Source of the DNA: an endosymbiont of Galathealinum brachiosum
Lineage (GTDB): Bacteria > Pseudomonadota > Gammaproteobacteria > SZUA-229
Assembly (NCBI GenBank): GCA_003349885.1
Contig: QFXC01000011.1
Coordinates: 449,977-513,976 of the forward strand
DNA length: 64,000 bases
Reading direction: 5' to 3'
Below the pieces are notes generated by a model. The model worked only from the letters and a program-made list of their open reading frames with translations. It did no database searches and was not told the DNA's origin. Positions 3,098 to 13,940 of this stretch are shown here, in pieces (the first letter of the stretch is position 1; every line of letters begins with the position of its first letter). The translations under genes were made by a program, and so were the position numbers.

Positions 3098-4732
3098 ATG
3101 GAAAACCAACGCACCATTCTTTACCTCGCCTTCTTTTTTACTCTGTTTTTACTTTATCAGGAGTGGCAAAAAAGCTATGGGCCTCAACCTGTAGTAACAG
3201 ACATAGAAAATGCTGCTTCATCTGTTCCCGGTGCTGACGCTGATTTATCTTCTTTACCGCAAGCAGTTATTCCGACAGGAACAAAATCCATTAATGCGTC
3301 ACCTCTGGCATCAGAGGAAAATGTTTCTCGAAATGCTGTTCATGTGGTGACAGATGTGATGGATTTAATGATTGATACGCAGGGTGGCACAATTTATCAG
3401 TTAGATTTGCGTGATTATCAGTTAAGTGCAGAACAGATAGATAAACCATTCCGCTTATTTTCAACAAAAGAAAGTCTTTATCATACAGCTCAATCAGGCC
3501 TGGTTTCATCCGCTCACCCTGCGCCTAATCATAAAGATATTTACCAGGCAGAAAGAACTGAATATCGTCTGGAAGAAGGCACAGATGAACTGAAAGTAAC
3601 ATTGTACTGGCAAAAAGAAGGTGTAACAGTTAATAAAATTTTCACTTTCACTCGTGATAGTTATGTTATTGATGTTGAACATGTTGTGTCGGCACAAAAC
3701 TGGAATGGCTCGGAGTATCGTCAGTTAGTTCGATCATTACAGGAACGTGAGTCAACTATGATTCCTACTTATGTAGGTGGCGTTGTATTTAATGAAGAAA
3801 TTAAATATGAAAAAGTTGATTTTGATGATATCGAAGAGCAGAGCTTTAAAACAGATATGAAAGGTGGCTGGATAGCAATGATCCAGCATTATTTTATGTC
3901 TGCGTGGGTACCTGATCAGAAGCAGGAAAATTTTACGTATACCTCTCATCCAACGGGAAATCGATATATTCTGGGTATGCGCTCACCTGCAGTTAATGCC
4001 ACTGCACAAAGTCCGGCTGTATTTAATAGTCAGTTAGTTGTGGGTCCAAAGCTACAGGGCAAGCTGGAAGAAATTTCTCCAGGACTGGAACTAGTAGTTG
4101 ATTACGGCATATTAACCATTCTTGCAAAACCCCTATTCTGGTTATTAGAATTTTATCACTCCCAATTTAATAACTGGGGCTGGGCAATTATCTTTTTAAC
4201 CATAACGGTTAAAGCAGCTTTTTACTGGTTATCAGCAAAAGGTTATCGTTCTATGGCTCGCATGCGTAAAGTGGGCCCACGTATGCAGCAATTAAAAGAA
4301 CGTTATGGTGATGACCGCCAGCGCATGTCTGCAGAAATGATGAAAATGTATAAAGAAGAGAAAATAAACCCATTGGGTGGATGTTTCCCTATCCTGATAC
4401 AAATTCCCGTGTTTATTGCGCTTTACTGGGTATTACTAGAATCTGTTGAAATGCGTAATGCGCCATTTGCTCTATGGATTCAAAATTTATCAGAACAGGA
4501 TCCATATTTTATTCTGCCAATATTGATGGGTGCAACGATGTATATTCAGCAGAAACTGAACCCTGCACCGGTTGATCCCGTACAGCAGAAAGTATTCCAG
4601 TTTATGCCTCTGGTATTCACTATCTTCTTCCTGTTCTTCCCGGCGGGTCTGGTACTTTACTGGGTAGTGAATAATACACTTTCAATTATTCAGCAATGGA
4701 TTATTACCAGAAATATCGAATCTGAAAAGTAG
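3098..4732 (+). CDS. yidC: Membrane protein insertase YidC
   Basis: N-terminal TM, periplasmic domain, VDYG, NPLGGCFPILIQIPVFIALY, LYWVVNN. Confidence 0.99.
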   Translation: MENQRTILYLAFFFTLFLLYQEWQKSYGPQPVVTDIENAASSVPGADADLSSLPQAVIPTGTKSINASPLASEENVSRNAVHVVTDVMDLMIDTQGGTIYQLDLRDYQLSAEQIDKPFRLFSTKESLYHTAQSGLVSSAHPAPNHKDIYQAERTEYRLEEGTDELKVTLYWQKEGVTVNKIFTFTRDSYVIDVEHVVSAQNWNGSEYRQLVRSLQERESTMIPTYVGGVVFNEEIKYEKVDFDDIEEQSFKTDMKGGWIAMIQHYFMSAWVPDQKQENFTYTSHPTGNRYILGMRSPAVNATAQSPAVFNSQLVVGPKLQGKLEEISPGLELVVDYGILTILAKPLFWLLEFYHSQFNNWGWAIIFLTITVKAAFYWLSAKGYRSMARMRKVGPRMQQLKERYGDDRQRMSAEMMKMYKEEKINPLGGCFPILIQIPVFIALYWVLLESVEMRNAPFALWIQNLSEQDPYFILPILMGATMYIQQKLNPAPVDPVQQKVFQFMPLVFTIFFLFFPAGLVLYWVVNNTLSIIQQWIITRNIESEK

Positions 4733-4841: not shown

Positions 4842-6194
4842 ATGACGCATTCTAACAAAGATACAATTGCAGCTATTGCTACAGCTCCCGGCAGAGGTGG
4901 TGTGGGAATCGTTCGGGTATCTGGTCCGAAAAGTTTCGAAATAGCTAAAAAAATTCTGGGTAAAACGCCAAAAATACGCAAAGCGGAATATTTGCCGTTT
5001 AATGATAGTGATGATCAGGCTATCGACACAGGTATCGCGCTGCTTTTCCAAAATCCAAACTCATTCACCGGTGAAGATATATTAGAGCTACAGGCCCATG
5101 GTGGCCCAGTGGTGCTGGATATGATTCTTAAGCGTGTGCTTGAACTGGGTGCCAGACCCGCGCGAGCAGGTGAATTTACTGAGCAGGCATTTATAAATGA
5201 TAAAATGGATCTGGCTCAGGCAGAAGCTGTTGCCGATTTAATAGAAGCAGAATCAGCGGAGGCTGCTAAAGCTGCTGTTAAATCTTTGCAGGGTGAATTT
5301 TCTAAAACAATATATGATCTGGTAGAAAGCCTGATAGAACTTCGTTTATATGTCGAAGCATCATTAGATTTTCCAGAAGAAGAAATAGATTTTCTAAGTG
5401 ATGGAAAAGTAGAAGCTAAACTGGCTTTAATTGAAGCAGCTTTGTTAGCGGTTTTTAAATCGGCAAGGCAGGGCTGTTTGTTACGCGAAGGTATGACACT
5501 GGTTATAGCGGGTCGGCCTAATGCAGGTAAGTCGAGTTTATTAAATCAGTTAGCGGGTCGTGAATCAGCAATTGTTACTGATATTCCAGGCACAACACGG
5601 GATGTTTTGCGTGAACATATTCAAATTGATGGTTTACCCTTGCACGTAATAGACACGGCAGGATTACGTGAATCTGAAGATCCTATTGAACAGGAAGGTG
5701 TACGACGTGCCTGGAAAGAGATTGAACAGGCTGACAGAATTATATTATTAGTAGATGATACGCACCGAGATGATGATCACCTTGAAATAGAAGATAAACT
5801 ACCACGGCATATTGGAGTTACCCGCGTATTTAATAAAATTGATACTTCAGGTAGAAAGGCAGAATTAATCGAAATTGAATCTGAAACGGATATAGCCCTC
5901 AGCGCTAAAACCGGAGCAGGTATGGATATTTTAAAAAATCATCTGAAACAATGCATGGGGTATGAGCAGAGTAATGAAGGTCGTTTTATGGCAAGAAGAC
6001 GTCATATTGAAGCGCTGGAAAATGCAGATCAACATTTGCAAAGAGCAAGATATAATCTAATAGAGTTACAGGCGGGTGAATTATTAGCTGAAGAATTACG
6101 TATGGCGCAGGATTTTCTTAGTCAGATAACCGGTGAGTTTACTTCTGATGATTTACTAGGGAAGATTTTTTCAAGTTTCTGTATAGGAAAATAA
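4842..6194 (+). CDS. mnmE: tRNA modification GTPase MnmE (TrmE)
   Basis: [25 protein letters not shown] and C-terminal FCIGK. Confidence 0.99.
6177..6194 (+). repeat. attL core (last 18 bp of mnmE)
   Basis: TTCTGTATAGGAAAATAA; 14/18 identical to 11531-11548. Confidence 0.85.
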
Positions 6195-6204
6195 ATTAGT
6201 ATTC

Positions 6205-6290
6205 AATAAGATCTTATAACGTCTAATAAGATCTATTCTCTTTGATTTATCAATAATTTAGTGTCTCATAATGTCTTGCGAGGTCTAATA
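6205..6290 (+). repeat. Helically phased repeats in the attL arm (putative RDF/Xis sites)
   Basis: AATAAGATCT at 6205 and 6225; RTCT at 6211/6221/6231 and GTCT at 6263/6273/6283 (10-bp period). Confidence 0.55.
6248..6260 (+). promoter_or_regulatory. IHF site in the attL arm
   Basis: TATCAATAATTTA matches WATCAANNNNTTR exactly. Confidence 0.7.
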
Positions 6291-6305
6291 ATATCCAGTT
6301 AATAT

Positions 6306-6360
6306 TGTGCCCAATAGTGTGCCTATGATCATTTATTAATCAAAAGTCATGGGCACAAAT
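6306..6360. repeat. Integrase arm-type sites (left)
   Basis: GTGCCCAA at 6307 and GTGCCTAT at 6319 (12-bp period). ATGGGCACAAAT at 6349-6360 is the exact reverse complement of 11447-11458. Confidence 0.75.
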
Positions 6361-6380
6361 CATAAAGGTGGTATGTATTA

Positions 6381-7586
6381 ATGGCATTAACAGAAACTAA
6401 ACTTAAAAATCTTAAACCTCGTGTAAAGTCTTATCAAATGTCAGATGGAAATGGTCTTTTCATAGAAGTTATGTCAGGTGGTAAGAAGGTATGGCGCTTA
6501 CGCTATCGTCTGAATGGTGTTCAGGAAAAAGTTACTCTTGGAGAATATCCTGCATATACACTGCTTGAAGCCAGACAGTGGCGGGAAGAATGTAGAGGCA
6601 TGGTAGCTAAAGGTATTTCTCCAATGAAGGAGAAGCAGAAGAGCAAGGGCTTCTTGAGTGGGCAGATTTCAGTTATTGAGTTTTGTGATGTTTGGGTGTC
6701 GGAAGTAGTAAACAAGACAACGAAAGAACCTAAAAATATTCGTAGAGTATTGGATAAAGATGTAATTCCAGCTATTGGACGAAAAAAACTGCCTGAAGTT
6801 AGCATTTCTGATGTTCAGTCTATTATTGATGCGATAAAGGCTCGTGGGTCTGATCAAGTAGCATTATTAACAAGGAATGTTATGAAGAGGTTATTTGCAT
6901 ATGCTATTTCACGTGAGAAATGTAATTTTAATCCTGCTGCAGCAATCGAGGGACGGTATATAGCCAAAACAAAAAATCGTGATGTTGTATTAACACCTAA
7001 AGAAATTGGTAAGTTACTAAAAGTTATTTATATGTCATCTATGAAAAGATCTAACAAGTTGGCTCTTCATTTGTTGATTTTATGCATGGTAAGGAAGTCA
7101 GAGCTTCTTGAAGCAACTTGGGATGAAATAGATTTTAAAAAGTGCGTTTGGTGTATTCCTGCAAGGCGAATGAAAAAGGATAAGCCTCATGTTGTGTACC
7201 TTTCAAATCAAGCATTAAATATATTAACTGAACTAAAATCATTGAGTAGTAACTCAAGCTATGTATTACCAAGTCGTACTACACTGAATCGTCCTATTTC
7301 AAAAACTACTTTGAACGCTGCTATAAAATCTTTAGACCTACAAATCAGTGCTTTTGTAATACATGATTTTAGGCGAACAGCTTCTACTCACTTACATGAA
7401 GCGGGTTTCAATTCAGATTGGATCGAAAAATCATTGGCACATGAGCAAGGTGGTGTGCGTGGTGTTTACAACCGAGCAGAATATTCAGAACAACGTCAAA
7501 AAATGCTTCAATGGTGGGCTAATTTTGTAGATGATCAAATTGTTGATAGAGACAATGTTATTCTGGGGCGTTTTTCAAATGTCTGA
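6381..7586 (+). CDS. P4-like tyrosine integrase with N-terminal arm-binding domain
   Basis: N-terminal DGNGLFIEV...KKVWRLRYR; catalytic R (MVRKSEL), HDFRR, LAH and Y (GVYNRAEY) all intact. Confidence 0.97.
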   Translation: MALTETKLKNLKPRVKSYQMSDGNGLFIEVMSGGKKVWRLRYRLNGVQEKVTLGEYPAYTLLEARQWREECRGMVAKGISPMKEKQKSKGFLSGQISVIEFCDVWVSEVVNKTTKEPKNIRRVLDKDVIPAIGRKKLPEVSISDVQSIIDAIKARGSDQVALLTRNVMKRLFAYAISREKCNFNPAAAIEGRYIAKTKNRDVVLTPKEIGKLLKVIYMSSMKRSNKLALHLLILCMVRKSELLEATWDEIDFKKCVWCIPARRMKKDKPHVVYLSNQALNILTELKSLSSNSSYVLPSRTTLNRPISKTTLNAAIKSLDLQISAFVIHDFRRTASTHLHEAGFNSDWIEKSLAHEQGGVRGVYNRAEYSEQRQKMLQWWANFVDDQIVDRDNVILGRFSNV

Positions 7587-8016
7587 TAAACAGGATTATT
7601 ATTCACTGCCTACAGGCTGTGATGATGAATCTACAGCAGGGGCTGCTTTATCTACAGATGTTCAATTAGCTTTTAGCTTTAAAGTTGGTCAACTTGGTAA
7701 GGATAAGGTAAATGAAATTATTGAGACAGAAGGTTTGCTGACTAAAAGGGATTTTGTACGACATGAGTACGGATCAATTAAAAACGCTCTTGAACACGTG
7801 CATAATTTAGCGGTAAAACAAGATAAACAACAATCAAGATTGCCAAAAACAGATTATAAACTTTCAGCTTCAGATAGGCAGAAAGCATTAAATAGGGTAA
7901 AGGTACTAAAAGATAAAAACCTGTCACGTTCTGATGAAGATGTATTCAATCAGGTAGGTACTGAGTATGGTGTTGTATCCAGAACAATCCGAAGGTTAGT
8001 AAACAGTATGAAATAA
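7579..8016 (+). CDS. Hypothetical protein (145 aa), possible C-terminal helix-turn-helix
   Basis: ATG 7579 overlaps the int stop. C-terminal DEDVFNQVGTEYGVVSRTIRRLV is HTH-like. Confidence 0.55.
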   Translation: MSDKQDYYSLPTGCDDESTAGAALSTDVQLAFSFKVGQLGKDKVNEIIETEGLLTKRDFVRHEYGSIKNALEHVHNLAVKQDKQQSRLPKTDYKLSASDRQKALNRVKVLKDKNLSRSDEDVFNQVGTEYGVVSRTIRRLVNSMK

Positions 8017-8017
8017 T

Positions 8018-8039
8018 TTGACACCCTCTCGCGTGTCAA
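8018..8039. promoter_or_regulatory. Palindrome upstream of alpA (operator or back-to-back -35 boxes)
   Basis: TTGACAC-N8-GTGTCAA. Confidence 0.5.
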
Positions 8040-8092
8040 TCCTAAGACGTTATTAAATCTAACTGTGTTCAATGAGATCTATGAGGTCAAAC

Positions 8093-8302
8093 ATGGTTGA
8101 TTCAATATTACGTTTACCAATCGTAACTGCTCGTACAGGCCTATCACGAGCAACAATATATTTAAAAATTAAACAGAAAAGATTTCCTCAGCAAGTAGCT
8201 CTTGGTGGAAGAGCTGTAGGCTGGTGGGAAAGTGAAGTGAACTCTTGGTTAGATTCACTGGAACGTGTAAAGGAAGATCCATTGAGGGGGGTTAAGAAAT
8301 GA
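8093..8302 (+). CDS. alpA: AlpA-family regulator / recombination directionality factor
   Basis: ILRLPIVTARTGLSRATIY...FPQQVALGGRAVGWWESEV; GAGG RBS before ATG 8093. Confidence 0.92.
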   Translation: MVDSILRLPIVTARTGLSRATIYLKIKQKRFPQQVALGGRAVGWWESEVNSWLDSLERVKEDPLRGVKK

Positions 8303-8562
8303 TTCTCCCAATAGATGATAACTACAGAGTAGTTGGGAATGCGTACGGATGGTCGATCGAGAAAAAACGACCGTATAAAAAGACATCAAAGTGGGAACCG
8401 ATTAAATGGTTTGGTTCTTTAGAGCAGGCAATTAATGGATTAGGTAGATTATGGCTACGGACATCAGATGCAGAGACTTTGGAGTCTGCATTGTTAGAAG
8501 TTGAACGTATCTCAGCCAGACTAAGCCGAGCTTTAGATAAAGATTATTATCAAAGTCTTTGA
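8299..8562 (+). CDS. Phage-type hypothetical protein, DUF5405-like
   Basis: ATGA overlap with alpA. Pattern YRV..NAYGWSIEKK...WFGSLEQAI...SDAETLESAL resembles DUF5405 (by eye). Confidence 0.5.
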   Translation: MILPIDDNYRVVGNAYGWSIEKKRPYKKTSKWEPIKWFGSLEQAINGLGRLWLRTSDAETLESALLEVERISARLSRALDKDYYQSL

Positions 8563-8574
8563 GGGGTACCGACT

Positions 8575-9036
8575 ATGAGTAGTCGCAATGTAGTCCAGAT
8601 CACAGATATGGGAATTATCACCGATGAAAAGCCCCCATTAATTAAGCCAGGTGTATATGAGCTTGCATTTGTCGAATACCAAACAGCATTAATGTTTGGC
8701 CGTGCATCAAAGCTAATAATGAAATTTAGAATTGTGTCTTTAGGAGAGCATTTTGGAGTAGAACTATTTAGGTATTACAACATCCAGAACTTTTGTGGCA
8801 AACCTGGTAGAAGCGGAAAATTTAAAGCTGGTTGGAAAAGTGACTTTGCTCGCGAATATGCATCTTTGTTTGAAGAATTACCAAATAGAACAGACCGGTT
8901 TTCTATGTCACTGTATAAGGAAAAAATAATAAGGGGCAGGGTAACGACTGTCAAACAAGGTAGTCGACAGAGAAAATTGCATAATGTATGTCAGTACAGT
9001 GTTATTAATGAGTTAATGGAGGTAAAGAAGTTATAG
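8575..9036 (+). CDS. Hypothetical protein, DUF669-like / putative phage ssDNA-binding OB-fold
   Basis: PGVYELAFVEYQ...KLIMKFRIVSLGEHFGVELFRYYN fits the PxGxY...F.I..GE..G pattern of DUF669 proteins (by eye). Confidence 0.45.
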   Translation: MSSRNVVQITDMGIITDEKPPLIKPGVYELAFVEYQTALMFGRASKLIMKFRIVSLGEHFGVELFRYYNIQNFCGKPGRSGKFKAGWKSDFAREYASLFEELPNRTDRFSMSLYKEKIIRGRVTTVKQGSRQRKLHNVCQYSVINELMEVKKL

Positions 9037-9048
9037 TAAATAGTTTTA

Positions 9049-9077
9049 CCTGACCTATGCCTAAACCTACACCTACT
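9049..9077 (+). repeat. Hexamer tandem array CCTA(NN) x4
   Basis: CCTGA-CCTATG-CCTAAA-CCTACA-CCTACT, with CCTA at 9054, 9060, 9066, 9072. Confidence 0.7.
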
Positions 9078-9272
9078 TAAAAATCTCTGATAGCTTGATG
9101 ACACAGAGGATGTAAAGAGGTGTATTGGCAAAGCATTGGCCCTTTGGCTAAAAGTAGTGGGCTAATAATCTGACTACTAATGACTACTGCCCCAGATAGC
9201 TGAAGATTATCAAATTTAGATGCTGTTTGGGGGCCAAAATGACTAATAATTTATATATTGTTTGATTAATAT

Positions 9273-9285
9273 AATCAAAGACTTA
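9273..9285 (+). promoter_or_regulatory. Internal IHF-consensus site, identical to 11503-11515
   Basis: AATCAAAGACTTA. Confidence 0.6.
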
Positions 9286-9303
9286 GATCTTAAATGTGCA
9301 ATA

Positions 9304-9606
9304 TTAAGCTGCTACATTCTGATTGAGGCGATTAAGAATATTCAACGCTATTACTTTATAAATAGAATCTTTAGCATTAATGACTTTTATATAATCACTA
9401 ATGCCATCACGACCTATTTCATATGCAAGAACCCCAAATAGTTCATCGGCAAATGAGTCAGATATAGAGAAAACGTTGGAAAAATCAAACTCCACCCTGT
9501 TTCCACGGGTTATAATTTGATTTACAGCCTCCCTATAGTTTCTCGCTTTAGCTCGAGAAGCTAAGTCACTTTCTAACAGTACTATAATGTTTGTTTTCAT
9601 TCTCAT
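9304..9606 (-). CDS. STAS-like (DUF4325) protein, anti-anti-sigma fold
   Basis: VEFDFSNVFSISDSFADELFG motif; ATGA overlap with the upstream kinase gene. Confidence 0.85.
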   Translation of the reverse strand: MRMKTNIIVLLESDLASRAKARNYREAVNQIITRGNRVEFDFSNVFSISDSFADELFGVLAYEIGRDGISDYIKVINAKDSIYKVIALNILNRLNQNVAA

Positions 9607-10541
9607 CTCCTCAGAAGGCTCACAATGTCTGAAATTTCGGGGCTATCTTTAGTTTCTTCGGCCTTAGAAAGATTACCTATAGGAAATCTACACGAAATAG
9701 CTACACCTTGCCAAGGTTCGCTTATAATTTCATTTGAGATATTTCCAGTGCTATCTATAGTATATATACAATCACCGGAACAAATGCAAAGGTTTCCTGC
9801 ATACTTTCTGACCAGCTGAATCAGCTTATACAGACCTAATCCTTGATGATGATTATCAGAATGGAACGTAGGCACATTGTTCCCATATGGGTTTCCACCT
9901 GTTTGATCTGTTGGTACCTTTTGATCCCAATCATTCTCAGGGGCGTCTCTTAGCTTGGTCGAATGCCCTTTTTGAATACACCATTCTATAGCTCCTTGGT
10001 GATCAGAGACTTCTAACCCAATACTTGTAACTTCTCGTAGAAACCCAAGCCCACTGTCTACCAGAGCAAATTCGAGACTTCCATTAAATTTCTGTGCCAT
10101 AGAGAAGCCAGTATTGAGGCCATGTGACCAAACATTATCATGGAGTTCTCCAACAACATTACATAAGTCTGATATGCCCTGTCCCTCCTCATGTTCACTA
10201 CAGCTTCTTATGCAGCTATTAATGGTAGAAGTCGCTTGATCTGTAACCTCTTGGCAATCAAGCTGTACAAGTGTTGAATAATTCAGCCCTTCATTTATTC
10301 GTTCATATTCATATGAATCAACCCCTGAAAGGTGCTTATCAAAAGCAATTGCCTTGGAATAGCCTTCTTGCACTTGATTACCAAATTGAACATTTTCTGT
10401 GGTGTATTTTTGCTTTTTACCTAAGCAAGCAGCAATAACCCAAAATCCTGGACTACAAAATTCATCTGGTAAAAGGAGCATATTTATCTCCAGTACATTA
10501 ATGTCATTTATGTTCTTAAGTGTTTTTCGAAGACTATACAT
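9603..10541 (-). CDS. GHKL/HATPase_c protein of anti-sigma-kinase type
   Basis: N-box ELHDNVWSHG, G1 VDSGLGF, G2 HQGLGL, G3 QGVAI. No HisKA phospho-His region or TM segments. Confidence 0.8.
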   Translation of the reverse strand: MYSLRKTLKNINDINVLEINMLLLPDEFCSPGFWVIAACLGKKQKYTTENVQFGNQVQEGYSKAIAFDKHLSGVDSYEYERINEGLNYSTLVQLDCQEVTDQATSTINSCIRSCSEHEEGQGISDLCNVVGELHDNVWSHGLNTGFSMAQKFNGSLEFALVDSGLGFLREVTSIGLEVSDHQGAIEWCIQKGHSTKLRDAPENDWDQKVPTDQTGGNPYGNNVPTFHSDNHHQGLGLYKLIQLVRKYAGNLCICSGDCIYTIDSTGNISNEIISEPWQGVAISCRFPIGNLSKAEETKDSPEISDIVSLLRR

Positions 10542-10546
10542 CTATT

Positions 10547-10574
10547 GTCTATGTTAGTGAGTCTATGTTAGTGA
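10547..10574. repeat. Perfect 14-bp tandem duplication just upstream of the kinase start codon
   Basis: GTCTATGTTAGTGA x2. Confidence 0.9.
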
Positions 10575-10671
10575 GTTTTTGTTGTTGGTCATTATAGTGG
10601 GGGATCAAAATTTAGATACAAATATAGTAACTGAATAGAAATATCGATTGGAAATATATTCTGTTTTGTAC

Positions 10672-11322
10672 CTATTTTGAGATCTTTGGAAATTTAGATA
10701 GAAATAAGTTCTCAATCATATTTTGTGCTTGATCGTTAAAATCTTTAATAGGTCGGGTTCTGTATACGGTACCCCTCCATACTTGATGGTTGTATTTAGG
10801 GGCTCCTGTCCACAATATTGGCTTAATACCTAATTCCCAGTAAGGTACATCATAGGACTCATGCCCTCCTGACCAACCAGACCCTCCGTATTGCCCTAAA
10901 TAAACACCACTATATGCTTGACCTGGAACGGTGACTTTCATTTGGCTTTCGATGAATGCTACAGTCAGAATTAGATCTGGATAATTTTTTAGGTCACGGA
11001 CGTTTATTTGTTTACCACCGTCTATATGATGTAAGTTCTTTAGGGGAATGAAATGTACTATATAACCTCTATTTTCCAGTTCAGTCTTACAATAAGCTAA
11101 CAGTGTTTTTTCAATAAGACCATCCACACCCAACTTTTTTCCTTCCTCTGTCCAGTAGCCTGTAACGAGTCCTATGGTTCTGGTAGATTTAAGGTCAAAT
11201 AATGGATCTGTAATGCCATCATAGGTGGTTTTATGGTTTATTGGTCCGACGGGTTGGCAACCAGATATTAGGGGAAGCATTATAGCCAGATATGTGATGG
11301 TGCTTTTTAGCATACATTTCAC
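10672..11322 (-). CDS. Lipoprotein of unknown function (DUF4136-like)
   Basis: Lipobox LISG|C; Gly/Tyr-rich loop YSGVYLGQYGGSGWSGG; C-terminal VWRGT. Confidence 0.65.
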   Translation of the reverse strand: MKCMLKSTITYLAIMLPLISGCQPVGPINHKTTYDGITDPLFDLKSTRTIGLVTGYWTEEGKKLGVDGLIEKTLLAYCKTELENRGYIVHFIPLKNLHHIDGGKQINVRDLKNYPDLILTVAFIESQMKVTVPGQAYSGVYLGQYGGSGWSGGHESYDVPYWELGIKPILWTGAPKYNHQVWRGTVYRTRPIKDFNDQAQNMIENLFLSKFPKISK

Positions 11323-11446
11323 CTTTAGTTATTATGTAATTATTCTTAATATATAACCATGCCACATGAGTATTAGTATATTAAAAATACCTATGTTTAA
11401 ATTTGAGTTTAAGCAACCAATATGTAAAGTAGCCTGATTTTAATAA

Positions 11447-11470
11447 ATTTGTGCCCATTATAGTGCCCAT
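11447..11470. repeat. Integrase arm-type sites (right)
   Basis: GTGCCCAT at 11451 and 11463 (12-bp period, same as the left pair). Confidence 0.75.
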
Positions 11471-11502
11471 TTAATGATTAAAGGAAATATAGATGTTAGG
11501 TA

Positions 11503-11515
11503 AATCAAAGACTTA
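11503..11515 (+). promoter_or_regulatory. IHF site in the attR arm
   Basis: AATCAAAGACTTA matches WATCAANNNNTTR and lies between the arm sites and the core. Confidence 0.7.
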
Positions 11516-11530
11516 TAACAATTTGTTACA

Positions 11531-11548
11531 TTTTGTATAGGTAAGTGA
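11531..11548 (+). repeat. attR core (displaced copy of the mnmE 3' end)
   Basis: TTT TGT ATA GGT AAG TGA encodes FCIGK-stop, the same peptide as the mnmE end. Confidence 0.88.
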
Positions 11549-11549
11549 A

Positions 11550-11972
11550 ATGAAATATATCATTAAATATCTGGTGTTAATGCTGTTAATAAACACGAAT
11601 GTATTTGCCGTAGAAAAATATAATCCGGACAGTGGTGATAAGGAGCTTGATGAATCATTGGTCTTAATACATAAAAATATTAATAGAAATAAAAAATCAA
11701 AATTAAGCCATTTTGTAGACAGGATAGCAGAAGAGTTTCAGATTCCTGTTGGAAAAGTTGAAGAACTGTTTAACCATTATAAGTTTAAAGTTCCAGATGT
11801 ACTAATGAGTGTGTCGATTGCCGATGTGAGTGGTGAACCATTACAGAATGTCGCTGGACTGTATTTTAAAAATAAAGAGAAAGGCTGGAAATATGCATTG
11901 AAGCAATTAAATATACGCAAGGGCAGTAAGATTTATAATCAGATAAAAAAAGACATAACAAGTATTCAATAA
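11550..11972 (+). CDS. Exported hypothetical protein
   Basis: Sec-type signal ending VFA|VE; 140-aa ORF starting 1 nt after attR. Confidence 0.7.
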   Translation: MKYIIKYLVLMLLINTNVFAVEKYNPDSGDKELDESLVLIHKNINRNKKSKLSHFVDRIAEEFQIPVGKVEELFNHYKFKVPDVLMSVSIADVSGEPLQNVAGLYFKNKEKGWKYALKQLNIRKGSKIYNQIKKDITSIQ

Positions 11973-11987
11973 TAAGAATAATTAAAA

Positions 11988-13940
11988 ATGAAGTATTTTA
12001 GGTATCCTCTGATAATAATATGTACATTAATCATAGTTATTATTTCGGCATTAACAATAATTAATTTCTCAAATATAAACTTTTCAAAACCCTATATTAC
12101 AAAATTAATAAGTGAAGCATTAAATAGAGAGATTAAATTTAATGGCGACATAAATATTAAATTTATACCCCCTCATATAACAATTAATAATGTAGAACTT
12201 GAAAATGCAGCATGGAAGACATCAGAAAATCAGATTGATTTAGAAAGCATGGATGTAATTCTGGATTTAGATTCTTTACTATCCGCGGAAGTGAAAATCA
12301 GCCAGATTAATCTTAAAGGTATAAAATTAGATTTACATAATGACAGCAAAGACAGGGCAAACTGGTTTTTTGGAAAAACGACTCAATCTGATGATGATAA
12401 AAGTGAAAAGAACAAGAAACCTGTCGTTTTACCATTCCACTCTAATATTGATATCAGTCTTTCAGATATTACTGTTATCTATAAAGATGAAATCATAAAA
12501 CATGATCATTCTTTTTTTATAGAAGAATTAAAACTGAGAAATAAAAATAATAAATCACATATTTTTATAAATGCTGTACATAATAGTGAACATCTAAATT
12601 TAGATATAGAAACTGAGTTGCTAAAGAATATTTTGGTTGTAAAAAAATTACCAATAATGATTACAGGTAATTATGGAAATATAGAAATTGAGCTTGATAC
12701 GGAAATTCCGCTTAAGGAAATAGACACAGAAAAACTTGTCATTGAGTTTGATATAGATTTTGAGAATTTTTCTACAATTGATAAGTTTATTAAGTCAGGA
12801 CTACCAGTAATACGTAATGAACTGGGAAGAATAGATATAAAGGGAAAACTTATAAAGAAAGAGAAAAAAATAACATTAGAGATGAAAAGTTCAAAAATAG
12901 GAAAATCTGTGTTTGAAGGTGATATAGAATATGTTGCTGATGCTGTTAGGCCGAAAATAAAAGCGGCAATGGAGTTTGAGAAACTTGATTTACTGTTTTT
13001 AAACAAAGATTCGAATAAAAAACAGGTGAAAACAGAACCAATAGAGAAAACTGAAAGAGATGTTCTGTTTTCTGAAACTAAACTTGATTTGAATTTTTTA
13101 AATAAAGTAGATACAGATTTAAATATAAAAATTGAAGATATTGATCATAAACAGTTAGAGTTTGAGACGTTAGATCTTATAGCCTCTCTGAAAAATGGTT
13201 TATTAATAATTAAAAAATTGCATATAGTTAATAATCGAGATGAAGAAATTGACCTGAAATTACGTCTTGATACTAAAAATGATAATAAAGTTGATTTATT
13301 ATTTATAACAGAAAATTTAAAATTAGGTGAAAATGATGTTTTGTCTGAGTACATAACCGGTGCGAATACAAATTTAAAAGTAAATCTTCAGGGTAAAGGG
13401 GATTCCGTTAAAAATATGATGGCAAACCTCAATGGACAGGTGGTAGTGAAAGTAGGAGAAGGTACGGTTGATAAAGATCTTTTAAAGTTTATAGGCAGCA
13501 ATATTTTAATGGATCTAGTTGATGCTGTGAATCCAGTTTCTGATTCATCTGAAACATCCAGTCTTGAATGTGCAGTTGTAAGACTGGATATAAAAGATGG
13601 CGTAGCAACCGCAAATAAGGGTGTTGTTATGCAAACGGATAAAATACAGGTTATCAGTAGTGGCATGATTGATTTAAAAAATGAAACATTAGAATTTGGT
13701 ATAAAACCACAGGCAAGAGAAGGCATAGAGCTTAATCTTAATAGTCTGGCATCAATGGTAAAAATAGATGGATCAATTAAAACCCCTACTATCTCCATGA
13801 GTGTTAAAGATACAGCGGTGGTTTATTCTTATTTTGCTACGGGAGGTGTTACTTTTTTGGCCAAGTCGTTATTTGATACAGCAACACGGGATGGTAATCC
13901 ATGTAAAACGGCATTGTTGGGGCCTGATGAAGTAAATTAG
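11988..13940 (+). CDS. AsmA-family protein
   Basis: N-terminal TM, LNREIKFNGDI...NW.F segment, beta-taco repeats, C-terminal LECAVVRLDIKDG...GSIKTP. Confidence 0.88.
   Translation: MKYFRYPLIIICTLIIVIISALTIINFSNINFSKPYITKLISEALNREIKFNGDINIKFIPPHITINNVELENAAWKTSENQIDLESMDVILDLDSLLSAEVKISQINLKGIKLDLHNDSKDRANWFFGKTTQSDDDKSEKNKKPVVLPFHSNIDISLSDITVIYKDEIIKHDHSFFIEELKLRNKNNKSHIFINAVHNSEHLNLDIETELLKNILVVKKLPIMITGNYGNIEIELDTEIPLKEIDTEKLVIEFDIDFENFSTIDKFIKSGLPVIRNELGRIDIKGKLIKKEKKITLEMKSSKIGKSVFEGDIEYVADAVRPKIKAAMEFEKLDLLFLNKDSNKKQVKTEPIEKTERDVLFSETKLDLNFLNKVDTDLNIKIEDIDHKQLEFETLDLIASLKNGLLIIKKLHIVNNRDEEIDLKLRLDTKNDNKVDLLFITENLKLGENDVLSEYITGANTNLKVNLQGKGDSVKNMMANLNGQVVVKVGEGTVDKDLLKFIGSNILMDLVDAVNPVSDSSETSSLECAVVRLDIKDGVATANKGVVMQTDKIQVISSGMIDLKNETLEFGIKPQAREGIELNLNSLASMVKIDGSIKTPTISMSVKDTAVVYSYFATGGVTFLAKSLFDTATRDGNPCKTALLGPDEVN

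Follow-up and report, generated by a model that had tools for sequence, protein, structure and literature searches.

In a 64,000-nt stretch of contig QFXC01000011.1 from an endosymbiont of Galathealinum brachiosum (here called the window), a small integrase island lies at the 3′ end of mnmE. Our leading interpretation, for which we judge belief and doubt to be about evenly balanced, is that this island is an intact, site-specific, helper-dependent minimal satellite, similar to the phage-inducible chromosomal islands (PICIs) or their minimalist form (PICMIs), with a novel module in its replication slot. Its backbone consists of the integrase gene int, a gene of 145 amino acids (aa) that we call X145, alpA, an 87-aa gene (Y87), and the gene for a 153-aa protein (S), which is followed by a structured noncoding element. 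The boundaries of the island, the site specificity of its integrase lineage, the selection on its backbone, the recurrence of the module, and the covariation of the structure are supported by the sequence.

Minimal satellites (PMC10803314) and integrase-plus-defense islands without transfer genes (PMC12595487) are already known. What is new here is the module: an unannotated protein family, predicted to have an oligonucleotide/oligosaccharide-binding (OB) fold, is coupled to a new structured motif and occupies the primase slot of a broad, unnamed set of satellite-like elements.

An integrase-alpA island at the 3′ end of mnmE

The chromosomal genes yidC (3098-4732) and mnmE (4842-6194) are both on the + strand and are followed directly by the island. 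Counted with one copy of its flanking 18-bp repeat, the island occupies 6195-11548, which reproduces exactly the 5,354 bp given in the original prediction for this DNA; with both repeats it spans 6177-11548. The attachment cores are listed in Table 1. By chance, about 0.04 matches to attL of the quality of attR (14/18) would be expected in the 10 kb searched. Further, attR sits in an intergenic gap, at the point where homology restarts with the right flank of a homologous island, L001, and L001 has its own att pair at the equivalent places (15/18 identical). The motif TGTGCCC is present just inside both ends of the window island and of L001. These copies are probable arm-type integrase sites, a role suggested by the arm-binding domain of P4-type integrases. 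The interval between attL and the arm-type repeats also contains a 10-bp repeat, AATAAGATCT, in three copies (6205-6235) and a 44-nt imperfect direct repeat (6190-6233 and 6252-6295). Part of this region (6190-6295) is conserved in L001, and the repeats may be further binding sites for recombination proteins. No tRNA genes were found within the window, and a metagenome scan using the 140-aa protein of the right flank returned no empty mnmE site.

Open reading frame (ORF) analysis confirmed five tightly packed + strand genes, as predicted. Residues R238, H328, R331, H354, and Y363/Y368, which we read as the catalytic-type set, do not vary when the integrase is aligned with two relatives. Together with the selection on int (see below) and the retention of both att cores and the arm-type repeats, this agrees with the earlier view that the integrase and its att arms look intact. 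X145 has no family match in Pfam, PHROGs, NCBIfam, or PADLOC, and no sequence similarity to it was found beyond L001/L002. For alpA, comparison with L001 indicates that the start is likely at 8093 rather than 8072. The label "DUF5405-like" given to the 87-aa gene has to be replaced: Y87 has no Pfam match at E ≤ 0.1 and instead matches phrog_154 (E 3.5e-10). The name of that family, "replication initiation protein," could be traced only to the RefSeq product name of PBC1 gp35, a weak match whose gene adjoins one for a DNA polymerase. An AlphaFold2 (AF2) model of Y87 shows four strands and two helices, with a predicted local distance difference test score (pLDDT) of 76.5; its fold found no informative match in the PDB (best E 0.26). 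With the same four profile libraries, no island ORF matched a primase, relaxase, terminase, or capsid family, in keeping with the claim that genes for the first two and for a capsid are missing.

Purifying selection acts on all five backbone genes, as judged from sequence comparison with L001. Ratios of nonsynonymous to synonymous divergence (dN/dS) are 0.11 for int, 0.17 for X145, 0.23 for alpA, 0.14 for Y87, and 0.10 for S, indicating that the five ORFs are real genes. The island genes have a dS of 0.8 to 1.8 against L001, well below that of the host mnmE, which is saturated at 3.5, indicating that the island postdates the divergence of its two hosts. Identity to L001 is 74 to 82% for all island backbone proteins but X145 (56%), compared with about 46 to 48% for the flanking host protein. 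This greater similarity and the younger age of the island together argue for its horizontal transfer.

The S protein and the structured element 3′ of its gene

S matches no profile in Pfam, PHROGs, NCBIfam, or PADLOC and, in searches with two profiles, no PDB entry by sequence. The DUF669 profile touches 1 of 108 S-family members, at E = 0.1, and does not touch the window protein. The AF2 model of S is beta-rich (pLDDT 81.5; predicted template modeling score [pTM], 0.77). In Foldseek comparisons, its best PDB match is PrgE of the conjugative plasmid pCF10 (8s4s/8s4t; E 2e-3; template modeling [TM] score, 0.51 to 0.59), with single-stranded DNA-binding proteins (SSBs) and PriB as weaker matches. 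In BFVD, the viral models that match best belong to DUF669 proteins and to SSBs of phages (E 1e-5 to 1e-3; TM ~0.5). S is therefore predicted, from its model, to have an OB fold resembling those of SSB and DUF669 proteins, as the original prediction had proposed. Its label "DUF669/SSB-like" holds for the predicted fold (PrgE, DUF669, and phage SSBs) but not for sequence profiles. Like PrgE, phage DUF669 proteins, and SSBs, S is predicted as a single OB-fold domain of similar size. Unlike them, it has a specific cis element 3′ of its gene (12/13 loci), shares only 7 to 19% identity with them, and has no Pfam DUF669 or SSB match. The family is also strongly basic (pI 9.3 to 10.1; 9.8 for the window protein) and aromatic-rich, and it does not have the acidic C-terminal tip of bacterial SSBs.

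An exhaustive profile search places 904 clusters in the S family at E ≤ 1e-3 and 549 at E ≤ 1e-10, and all four profile libraries leave the family unrecognized. A word-indexed homology search had returned nine proteins; the extreme rarity that this suggested was an artifact of the method.

The copy of the cis element in the window, hexamers and helices together, spans 9048-9238. The parts common to 12 of 13 loci stand in the same order: 5 to 10 hexamers, a TTGGCA box, helix H1, a CAGACTNACTGACTAC-like stretch, and hairpin H2. The hexamers follow the consensus [CG][CT]T[GAT][CT]A, the array always ends in (A)CCTAC, and a period of 6 stands above shuffles in 11 of the 13 loci. We considered whether the hexamer region is a small gene, since L003 and L005 allow ORFs of 82 to 94 aa to be called there. 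In the window and L001, however, every frame is interrupted, and L006, L007, and L011 have no ORF that crosses the element. The codon phase relative to the hexamers also varies by lineage, so coding does not account for the 6-nt periodicity.

Each half of the H1 loop can pair with a segment flanking H2, giving helices P2 and P3. The order of the arms (H1-5′, P2-5′, P3-5′, H1-3′, linker, P3-3′, H2, P2-3′) is, as read from the sequence, that of a pseudoknot or a two-state switch. The four helices covary over 11 loci in a cross-group pairing table compiled by hand. Across loci, the arms of P2 pair as TTTGGC/GCCAAA, TTTGGA/TCCAAA, GGAT/ATCC, GCGGA/TCCGC, GCGGG/CCCGC, and CTTGG/TCAAG, and those of P3 as AGTAGT/ACTACT, CGTAGT/ACTACG, GGTAG/CTACC, and GGTAGAA/TTCTACC; examples for H1 are TTGGCCC/GGGCCAA, TTAGCTT/AAGCTAA, TTGGTCT/AGACCAA, and TTGTCCT/AGGACAA. 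In a MAFFT alignment of five loci, which was not fitted to the structure, pairing holds in 90.7% of cells versus 34 to 50% with the partners slid. The same alignment contains eight double-change pairs, compared with zero to two in the slid controls, and none of 500 shuffles reached the observed values. Independently, RNAalifold recovered H1 and H2 in one subgroup and P2, P3, and H2 in the other. A covariance model built from five loci gave weak matches in the other subgroup (E 4 to 7), with H2 truncated.

The window copy folds with a z-score of −3.7. Because several of the pairs are G-T/G-U, the structure can be read on the + strand only, as RNA or as single-stranded DNA (ssDNA). The element is 78% identical to that of L001 in conserved blocks, far more than synonymous divergence would leave at unconstrained sites, indicating that it is constrained. 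Searches of Rfam 15 found nothing relevant in the window (E ≤ 1) or in six related loci (E ≤ 0.5), and the tRNA and Rfam searches rule out a tRNA, a transfer-messenger RNA, or a known RNA family as its identity. In the organization of Staphylococcus aureus pathogenicity islands and other PICIs, the origin lies directly after the gene in the replication slot, the position that the cis element holds here relative to S.

Recurrence of the module, the primase slot, and the cargo

Thirteen nonredundant S loci were read, 12 of them contexts in metagenomic relatives beyond the window. Mapping of synteny around homologues of the protein encoded at 8575-9036, drawn from the 904 clusters, places S after alpA/xis, with the cis element 3′ of it in 12 of the 13 loci. 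The gene orders vary around this core (numbers are protein lengths in amino acids). L001/L002 read mnmE-int-145-212-alpA-87-S, followed by different cargo. Other integrase islands read int-302-HTH_17-132-S-214 (L006), int-248-89-137-S-229-90 followed by SIEA and other cargo (L007-L010), tRNA-int-DUF6387-AlpA-163-S-201 (L011-L013), int-178-AlpA-S with the first two genes overlapping (L096), int-278-HTH_17-S-134 (L099), and int-269-151-S-148 (L100); L098 reads AlpA-123-79-S-146. Two short fragments contain 69-98-S (L004) and S-94-180 (L003). Phage structural genes are present in two elements, L005 (int-183-HTH_17-90 [phrog_154]-S, then HNH-TerL and, further on, capsid) and L014 (int, Arc and HTH_17, S, and a lambda-type tail gene). 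S is thus found both in small integrase islands and in elements with structural genes, its carriers ranging from islands of a few kilobases to capsid-forming elements, and it is the sole constant gene after alpA/xis. No primase was recognizable in the S loci, judged from the Pfam families recorded for called genes and, in L005, from scanned ORFs. The recurrent family envisaged in the original prediction is therefore borne out as one of small integrase-alpA islands in which S, followed by a conserved cis element, is the only universal gene after alpA.

In three loci a gene for the small terminase subunit (terS) comes directly after S and the element (L098, 1701-2141; L100, 3597-4043; L003, 1313-1855). 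These genes match phrog_51 (E 1e-7 to 1e-8) and phrog_4044 (E 2e-6), and those of L098 and L100, the two scanned, have no Pfam match. Their position ties the S family to phage packaging. In L006 (10766-11410), L007 (10734-11423), and L011 (10729-11334), the cis element is followed instead by a gene for a protein of 201 to 229 aa, Z, which is conserved over three lineages and absent from the window. Z has a C-terminal motif, KGQQKMTVEHVHVNEGGQAIIGNV, and no Pfam or PHROG match; it may act with S in packaging or replication. In L096, a tRNA gene (3356-3429), ~640 nt downstream of S, separates the S backbone (int-178-alpA-S, ~3 kb) from DISARM-like genes (a 1,755-aa DEAD/MZB protein and SNF2). 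L096 may represent tandem islands or a very small S element of ~3 kb.

A metagenome scan for relatives of the window integrase returned 80 loci, of which at least 20 lie immediately downstream of an mnmE gene that ends in the same 18-mer class. None of the 80 contains S, ruling out that S is tied to this integrase lineage. In many relatives with enough sequence, the gene after int overlaps or adjoins it and encodes ~200 aa; alpA and a small gene come next, and after them a gene for a protein of 436 to 952 aa. Ten of these large proteins were scanned: five are primase-helicases (DUF3987+Prim-Pol, PriCT_2+Toprim_3+DUF3987, or DUF927+Prim-Pol), two are AAA_25 proteins, which we read as RepA/DnaB-like helicases, and three are cargo. 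The alpha-like PriCT_2+Toprim_3+DUF3987 protein occurs in L021, L030, and L032 only. At mnmE, L016, L021, L028, L030, and L032 show a P4/PICMI-like order, with the primase-helicase after the small gene.

In the window, the position of the primase-helicase is filled by Y87 and S. The original prediction had weighed the possibility that homologous elements carry a primase that was deleted here. The closest integrase relatives at mnmE do carry one, but none is recognizable in the S loci. Because S recurs in so many unrelated integrase backgrounds, we favor replacement of a module over deletion. A separate mnmE island of ~4.5 kb, L023 (240-4733), has its own attL and attR (15/18) and an integrase 61% identical to that of the window, with neither S nor a large primase-sized ORF. 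Minimal islands at mnmE may thus be of several kinds.

The three minus-strand genes between the element and attR (9304-11322) would be exchangeable cargo, possibly with anti-phage functions. Indeed, the window island and L001 have unrelated genes between S and attR: the STAS-like gene is absent from L001, which has other cargo there, and L001/L002 share the backbone only. PADLOC found no defense system in this cargo, its one signal being a partial DrmA-like match of the STAS-like protein, and the literature on DUF4325 was uninformative for naming the cargo as a defense system. A defense role for the 312-aa protein is conjecture, based on where its gene lies. A perfect 14-bp tandem duplication, GTCTATGTTAGTGA, in two copies (10547-10576), immediately precedes the start of this gene. 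Elsewhere in the family, the cargo of L007-L010 includes a protein of the SIEA (superinfection exclusion) family (L007, 11744-12274), which is consistent with anti-phage cargo in S elements.

With mnmE on the left, the neighbor of the island on the right is a gene for a secreted-looking 140-aa protein (11550-11972), homologous to the right neighbor of L001 (48% identity in the local BLASTP alignment and about 46% over the full alignment). To the right of attR, G+C falls to 27 to 29% (11250-13250), a composition atypical for the window, over this gene and the start of a gene for a 650-aa protein (11988-13940). Since L001 has a homologue of the 140-aa protein at the same place, this low-G+C stretch lies outside the island.

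Table 1. Features of the island, with positions numbered over the whole window
Feature	Position	Strand	Description and evidence
attL core	6177..6194	+	TTCTGTATAGGAAAATAA; last 18 bp of mnmE including stop codon; direct reading
TGTGCCC repeats between attL and int	6305..6357	.	Two direct copies at 6305-6326, one inverted at ~6350-6357
int	6381..7586	+	P4-type tyrosine integrase, 401 aa, apparently intact; Pfam Arm-DNA-bind_3, Phage_int_M, Phage_integrase; phrog_1 E 6e-71
X145	7579..8016	+	145-aa gene; ATG overlaps int stop by 8 nt, ATGTCTGA (7579-7586)
alpA	8072..8302	+	Excisionase/regulator; PF05930 E 3.4e-19; phrog_2790 and phrog_66, "excisionase and transcriptional regulator"
Y87	8299..8562	+	87-aa gene; 4-nt (ATGA) overlap with alpA; phrog_154
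S	8575..9036	+	Hallmark gene; basic OB-fold protein, 153 aa; SSB/DUF669/PrgE-like by predicted fold only
Tandem hexamer array	9048..9077	+	ACCTG ACCTAT GCCTAA ACCTAC ACCTAC; immediately 3′ of S
TTGGCA box	9125-9130	+	Conserved part of element
Helix H1	9135-9142 / 9159-9166	+	Covarying
Helix P2	9143-9148 / 9233-9238	+	Covarying
Helix P3	9153-9158 / 9183-9188	+	Covarying
Hairpin H2	9189-9232	+	GC-rich; part of conserved structured element 9125..9238
STAS-like DUF4325 protein	9304..9606	-	100 aa; PF14213 E 4e-13
312-aa protein	9603..10541	-	Weak GHKL-ATPase signature; phrog_3364 E 1e-41; HATPase_c_5 E 0.018; overlaps STAS-like gene
Lipoprotein-like protein	10672..11322	-	216 aa; weak DUF4136 match E 5e-4, below Pfam cutoff; N-terminal signal and Cys in translation
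TGTGCCC direct repeats, right end	11449..11468	+	L001 counterpart 7627-7646
attR core	11531..11548	+	TTTTGTATAGGTAAGTGA; best attL match downstream of int, 14/18 identical

Proposed mechanism, alternatives, and known systems

We propose that the P4-type integrase inserts the island into mnmE, within its last 18 bp, and restores that gene's 3′ terminus, a step supported by the sequence and by the behavior of the integrase lineage. Excision would be carried out by Int and AlpA, probably with X145 as well, as PICMIs suggest. In the replication slot, Y87, S, and the cis element would take the place of the primase-helicase and origin that follow alpA in relatives. We infer that S binds ssDNA and that the island depends on a helper: S would bind the hexamer array in single-stranded form, the S-bound hexamers and the folded element would form an origin or priming site, and host or helper enzymes would copy the excised circle without an element-encoded primase. 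Because terS, capsid, and transfer genes are all missing from the island, we propose that a helper phage packages the copies. A bolder claim, which we put forward tentatively and would ourselves rather doubt than accept, is that S and the hexamer-plus-pseudoknot element form an undescribed, self-contained module for satellite propagation. In such a module, a sequence-specific OB-fold protein would polymerize on 6-nt repeats of one strand and recruit the replication (or packaging) machinery of the host or helper, needing no primase, helicase, or initiator of its own, and the module would define a large family, from islands of 3 to 5 kb to capsid-forming elements.

Several observations weigh against the helper-dependent satellite interpretation. 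Excision, replication, and transfer are all deduced from the DNA sequence alone; a search for public sequencing runs in which to seek excision junctions listed none for this stretch. Packaging by a phage is argued by analogy, and both the window element and L001 are without terS. At the sequence level, nothing links S to any SSB family, and by fold its matches are of moderate quality (TM ~0.5). No S homologue or copy of the motif was found in IMG/VR with two alignments and one DNA pattern, and tblastn found no S homologue in GenBank phages or in 72,556 PLSDB plasmids. The noncoding repeats that the original prediction noted after S are present as the hexamer array, but this array is short and the weakest of the set, and its period of 6 is not significant in the window alone. 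The covariation of the helices, as a sequence pattern, is no less compatible with an RNA than with an ssDNA origin, and the promoter and terminator evidence at the element does not separate the two. Finally, the insertion site is that of plasmid-mobilized islands, a point that the original prediction had missed, which keeps a conjugative helper in play.

In this main alternative, the island would be an integrative mobilizable element, moved by a conjugative helper much as IncC plasmids move SGI1 or MGIVchHai6. Its folded + strand element would be an origin of transfer (oriT) or a single-strand initiation or promoter site on the strand that is transferred, and S would be a plasmid-type SSB that coats incoming ssDNA. 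We consider this improbable, although the att core is the site used by SGI1 and MGIVchHai6, islands with Int and Xis (PMC3285670, PMC7449626), and some mobilizable islands have just an oriT mimic and no relaxase (PMC7449626). The likeness of S to PrgE, its best match among solved structures and a protein of a conjugative plasmid, points the same way, and strand-specific hairpins suit ssDNA. However, general profile-library scans, which included no MobI profile, detected no MobI, MpsAB, relaxase, or type IV secretion system-like gene. The one-direction int-alpA order is satellite-like rather than the convergent int/xis of MGIVchHai6, relatives with S and the cis element encode terS or HNH-TerL-capsid after the module, and the absence of S homologues from the 72,556 plasmids is again unfavorable. 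In another account, which we also think unlikely, S and the element are a regulatory pair: S would bind the hexamer/pseudoknot region of its own transcript and control the downstream genes (terS and Z) or the timing of the element, which perhaps does not replicate and is just transduced. T4 gp32 and the f1 gene V protein, acting on mRNA, and the P4-like immunity RNA offer parallels. Helices with G-U-type wobbles, readable on the sense strand of S only, and the topology of a pseudoknot or two-state switch would suit such an RNA. In L003, L006, L007, L011, L098, and L100, the element also separates S from the + strand gene that comes next. Transduction of integrase-plus-defense islands without replication genes by jumbo phages is already known (PMC12595487). 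Yet the element is conserved in the window, L001, and L096, where no + strand gene follows it, and it has no Rfam relative; L005 and L014, which have phage structural genes, would be left without any recognizable replication gene.

Very unlikely, in our view, is that the island is a degenerate remnant of a P4-like or PICMI-like element that lost its primase and became a fixed, immobile defense islet. Its very small size, its lack of transfer genes, and the primase-helicase after alpA in its closest integrase relatives at mnmE could suggest decay, but purifying selection acts on all five backbone genes, which are intact, the island retains both att cores and its arm-type repeats, and the dS of the island is far below that of the host. 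Moreover, the same primase-less backbone is found in L001/L002 with different cargo, and S and the cis element recur in at least nine further independent primase-less lineages. If the minimal satellite interpretation is true, a set of int, alpA, a 150-aa OB-fold protein, and a folded cis element lowers the known minimum for exploiting a helper. The S family might also explain why, in some of the satellite-like elements reported, a primase-replicase was missing or went unidentified. Two testable objects emerge, an unannotated protein family of ~900 clusters and the covarying structured motif found with it.

Among known systems, SGI1 integrates into the last 18 bp of trmE/thdF (= mnmE) with imperfect 18-bp repeats (PMC3285670), and MGIVchHai6-type islands use the trmE site with a lambda-family Int and Xis (PMC7449626). 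The latter have mobI with an upstream oriT, an xis-86-85 cluster convergent with int, and AcaCD boxes (PMC7449626). The window island resembles both in its att core, in its imperfect 18-bp repeats, in having an integrase together with a small excision factor, and, if the inferred role of its cargo is correct, in carrying defense or resistance genes. It differs in its size (5.4 kb versus about 20 to 47 kb), in its entirely codirectional backbone (MGIVchHai6 has convergent int/xis), and in that the four-library family scans detected no mpsAB/oriT, mobI, traN/G/H, sgaDC, or rep; 5.4 kb leaves no room for the SGI1 set of these genes. The SGI1 site, at the 3′ end of mnmE/trmE, emerges here as a hotspot for satellite-like islands as well. 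With P4-like satellites, the island shares a P4-type integrase (Arm-DNA-bind_3, Phage_int_M, and a catalytic domain) and alpA, whereas no alpha primase-helicase, psu/delta/sid, ash, or cos region was detected in it.

Published definitions of satellites treat the primase-replicase as core, and even the PICMI, proposed as a minimal satellite, still needs one. The PICI core set of SatelliteFinder comprises an integrase, an AlpA/Stl/MerR regulator, a primase-replicase, capsid morphogenesis genes, and terS (PMC10085698). The window element has the first two only, and detectors built on profiles like those of the four libraries searched here would probably miss an S-type replication slot. S relatives come closer to PICIs and capsid-forming PICIs (cf-PICIs), with int, alpA, and the module followed by terS in L003, L098, and L100 or by HNH, TerL, and capsid genes in L005. 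PICMIs of the Vibrionaceae, found next to fis, have the order int, iolg, alpA, up1, prim, and a defense gene, of which int, alpA, and prim (DUF3987/DUF5906) are mandatory (PMC10803314). The window island is of the same ~5- to 6-kb class and has the same gene order and orientation, without capsid-remodeling or packaging genes; X145, which overlaps the int stop as iolg does, is a positional analogue. It differs in lying at the mnmE 3′ end rather than beside fis and in having S and the structured cis element in the slot of prim. The conclusion of the original prediction, that the element fits neither satellites nor mobilizable islands, was therefore too strong: its gene order matches that of PICMIs one for one, with S in place of prim (PMC10803314), and relatives of the S module with terS or HNH-TerL-capsid put the family inside the PICI/cf-PICI/PICMI continuum.

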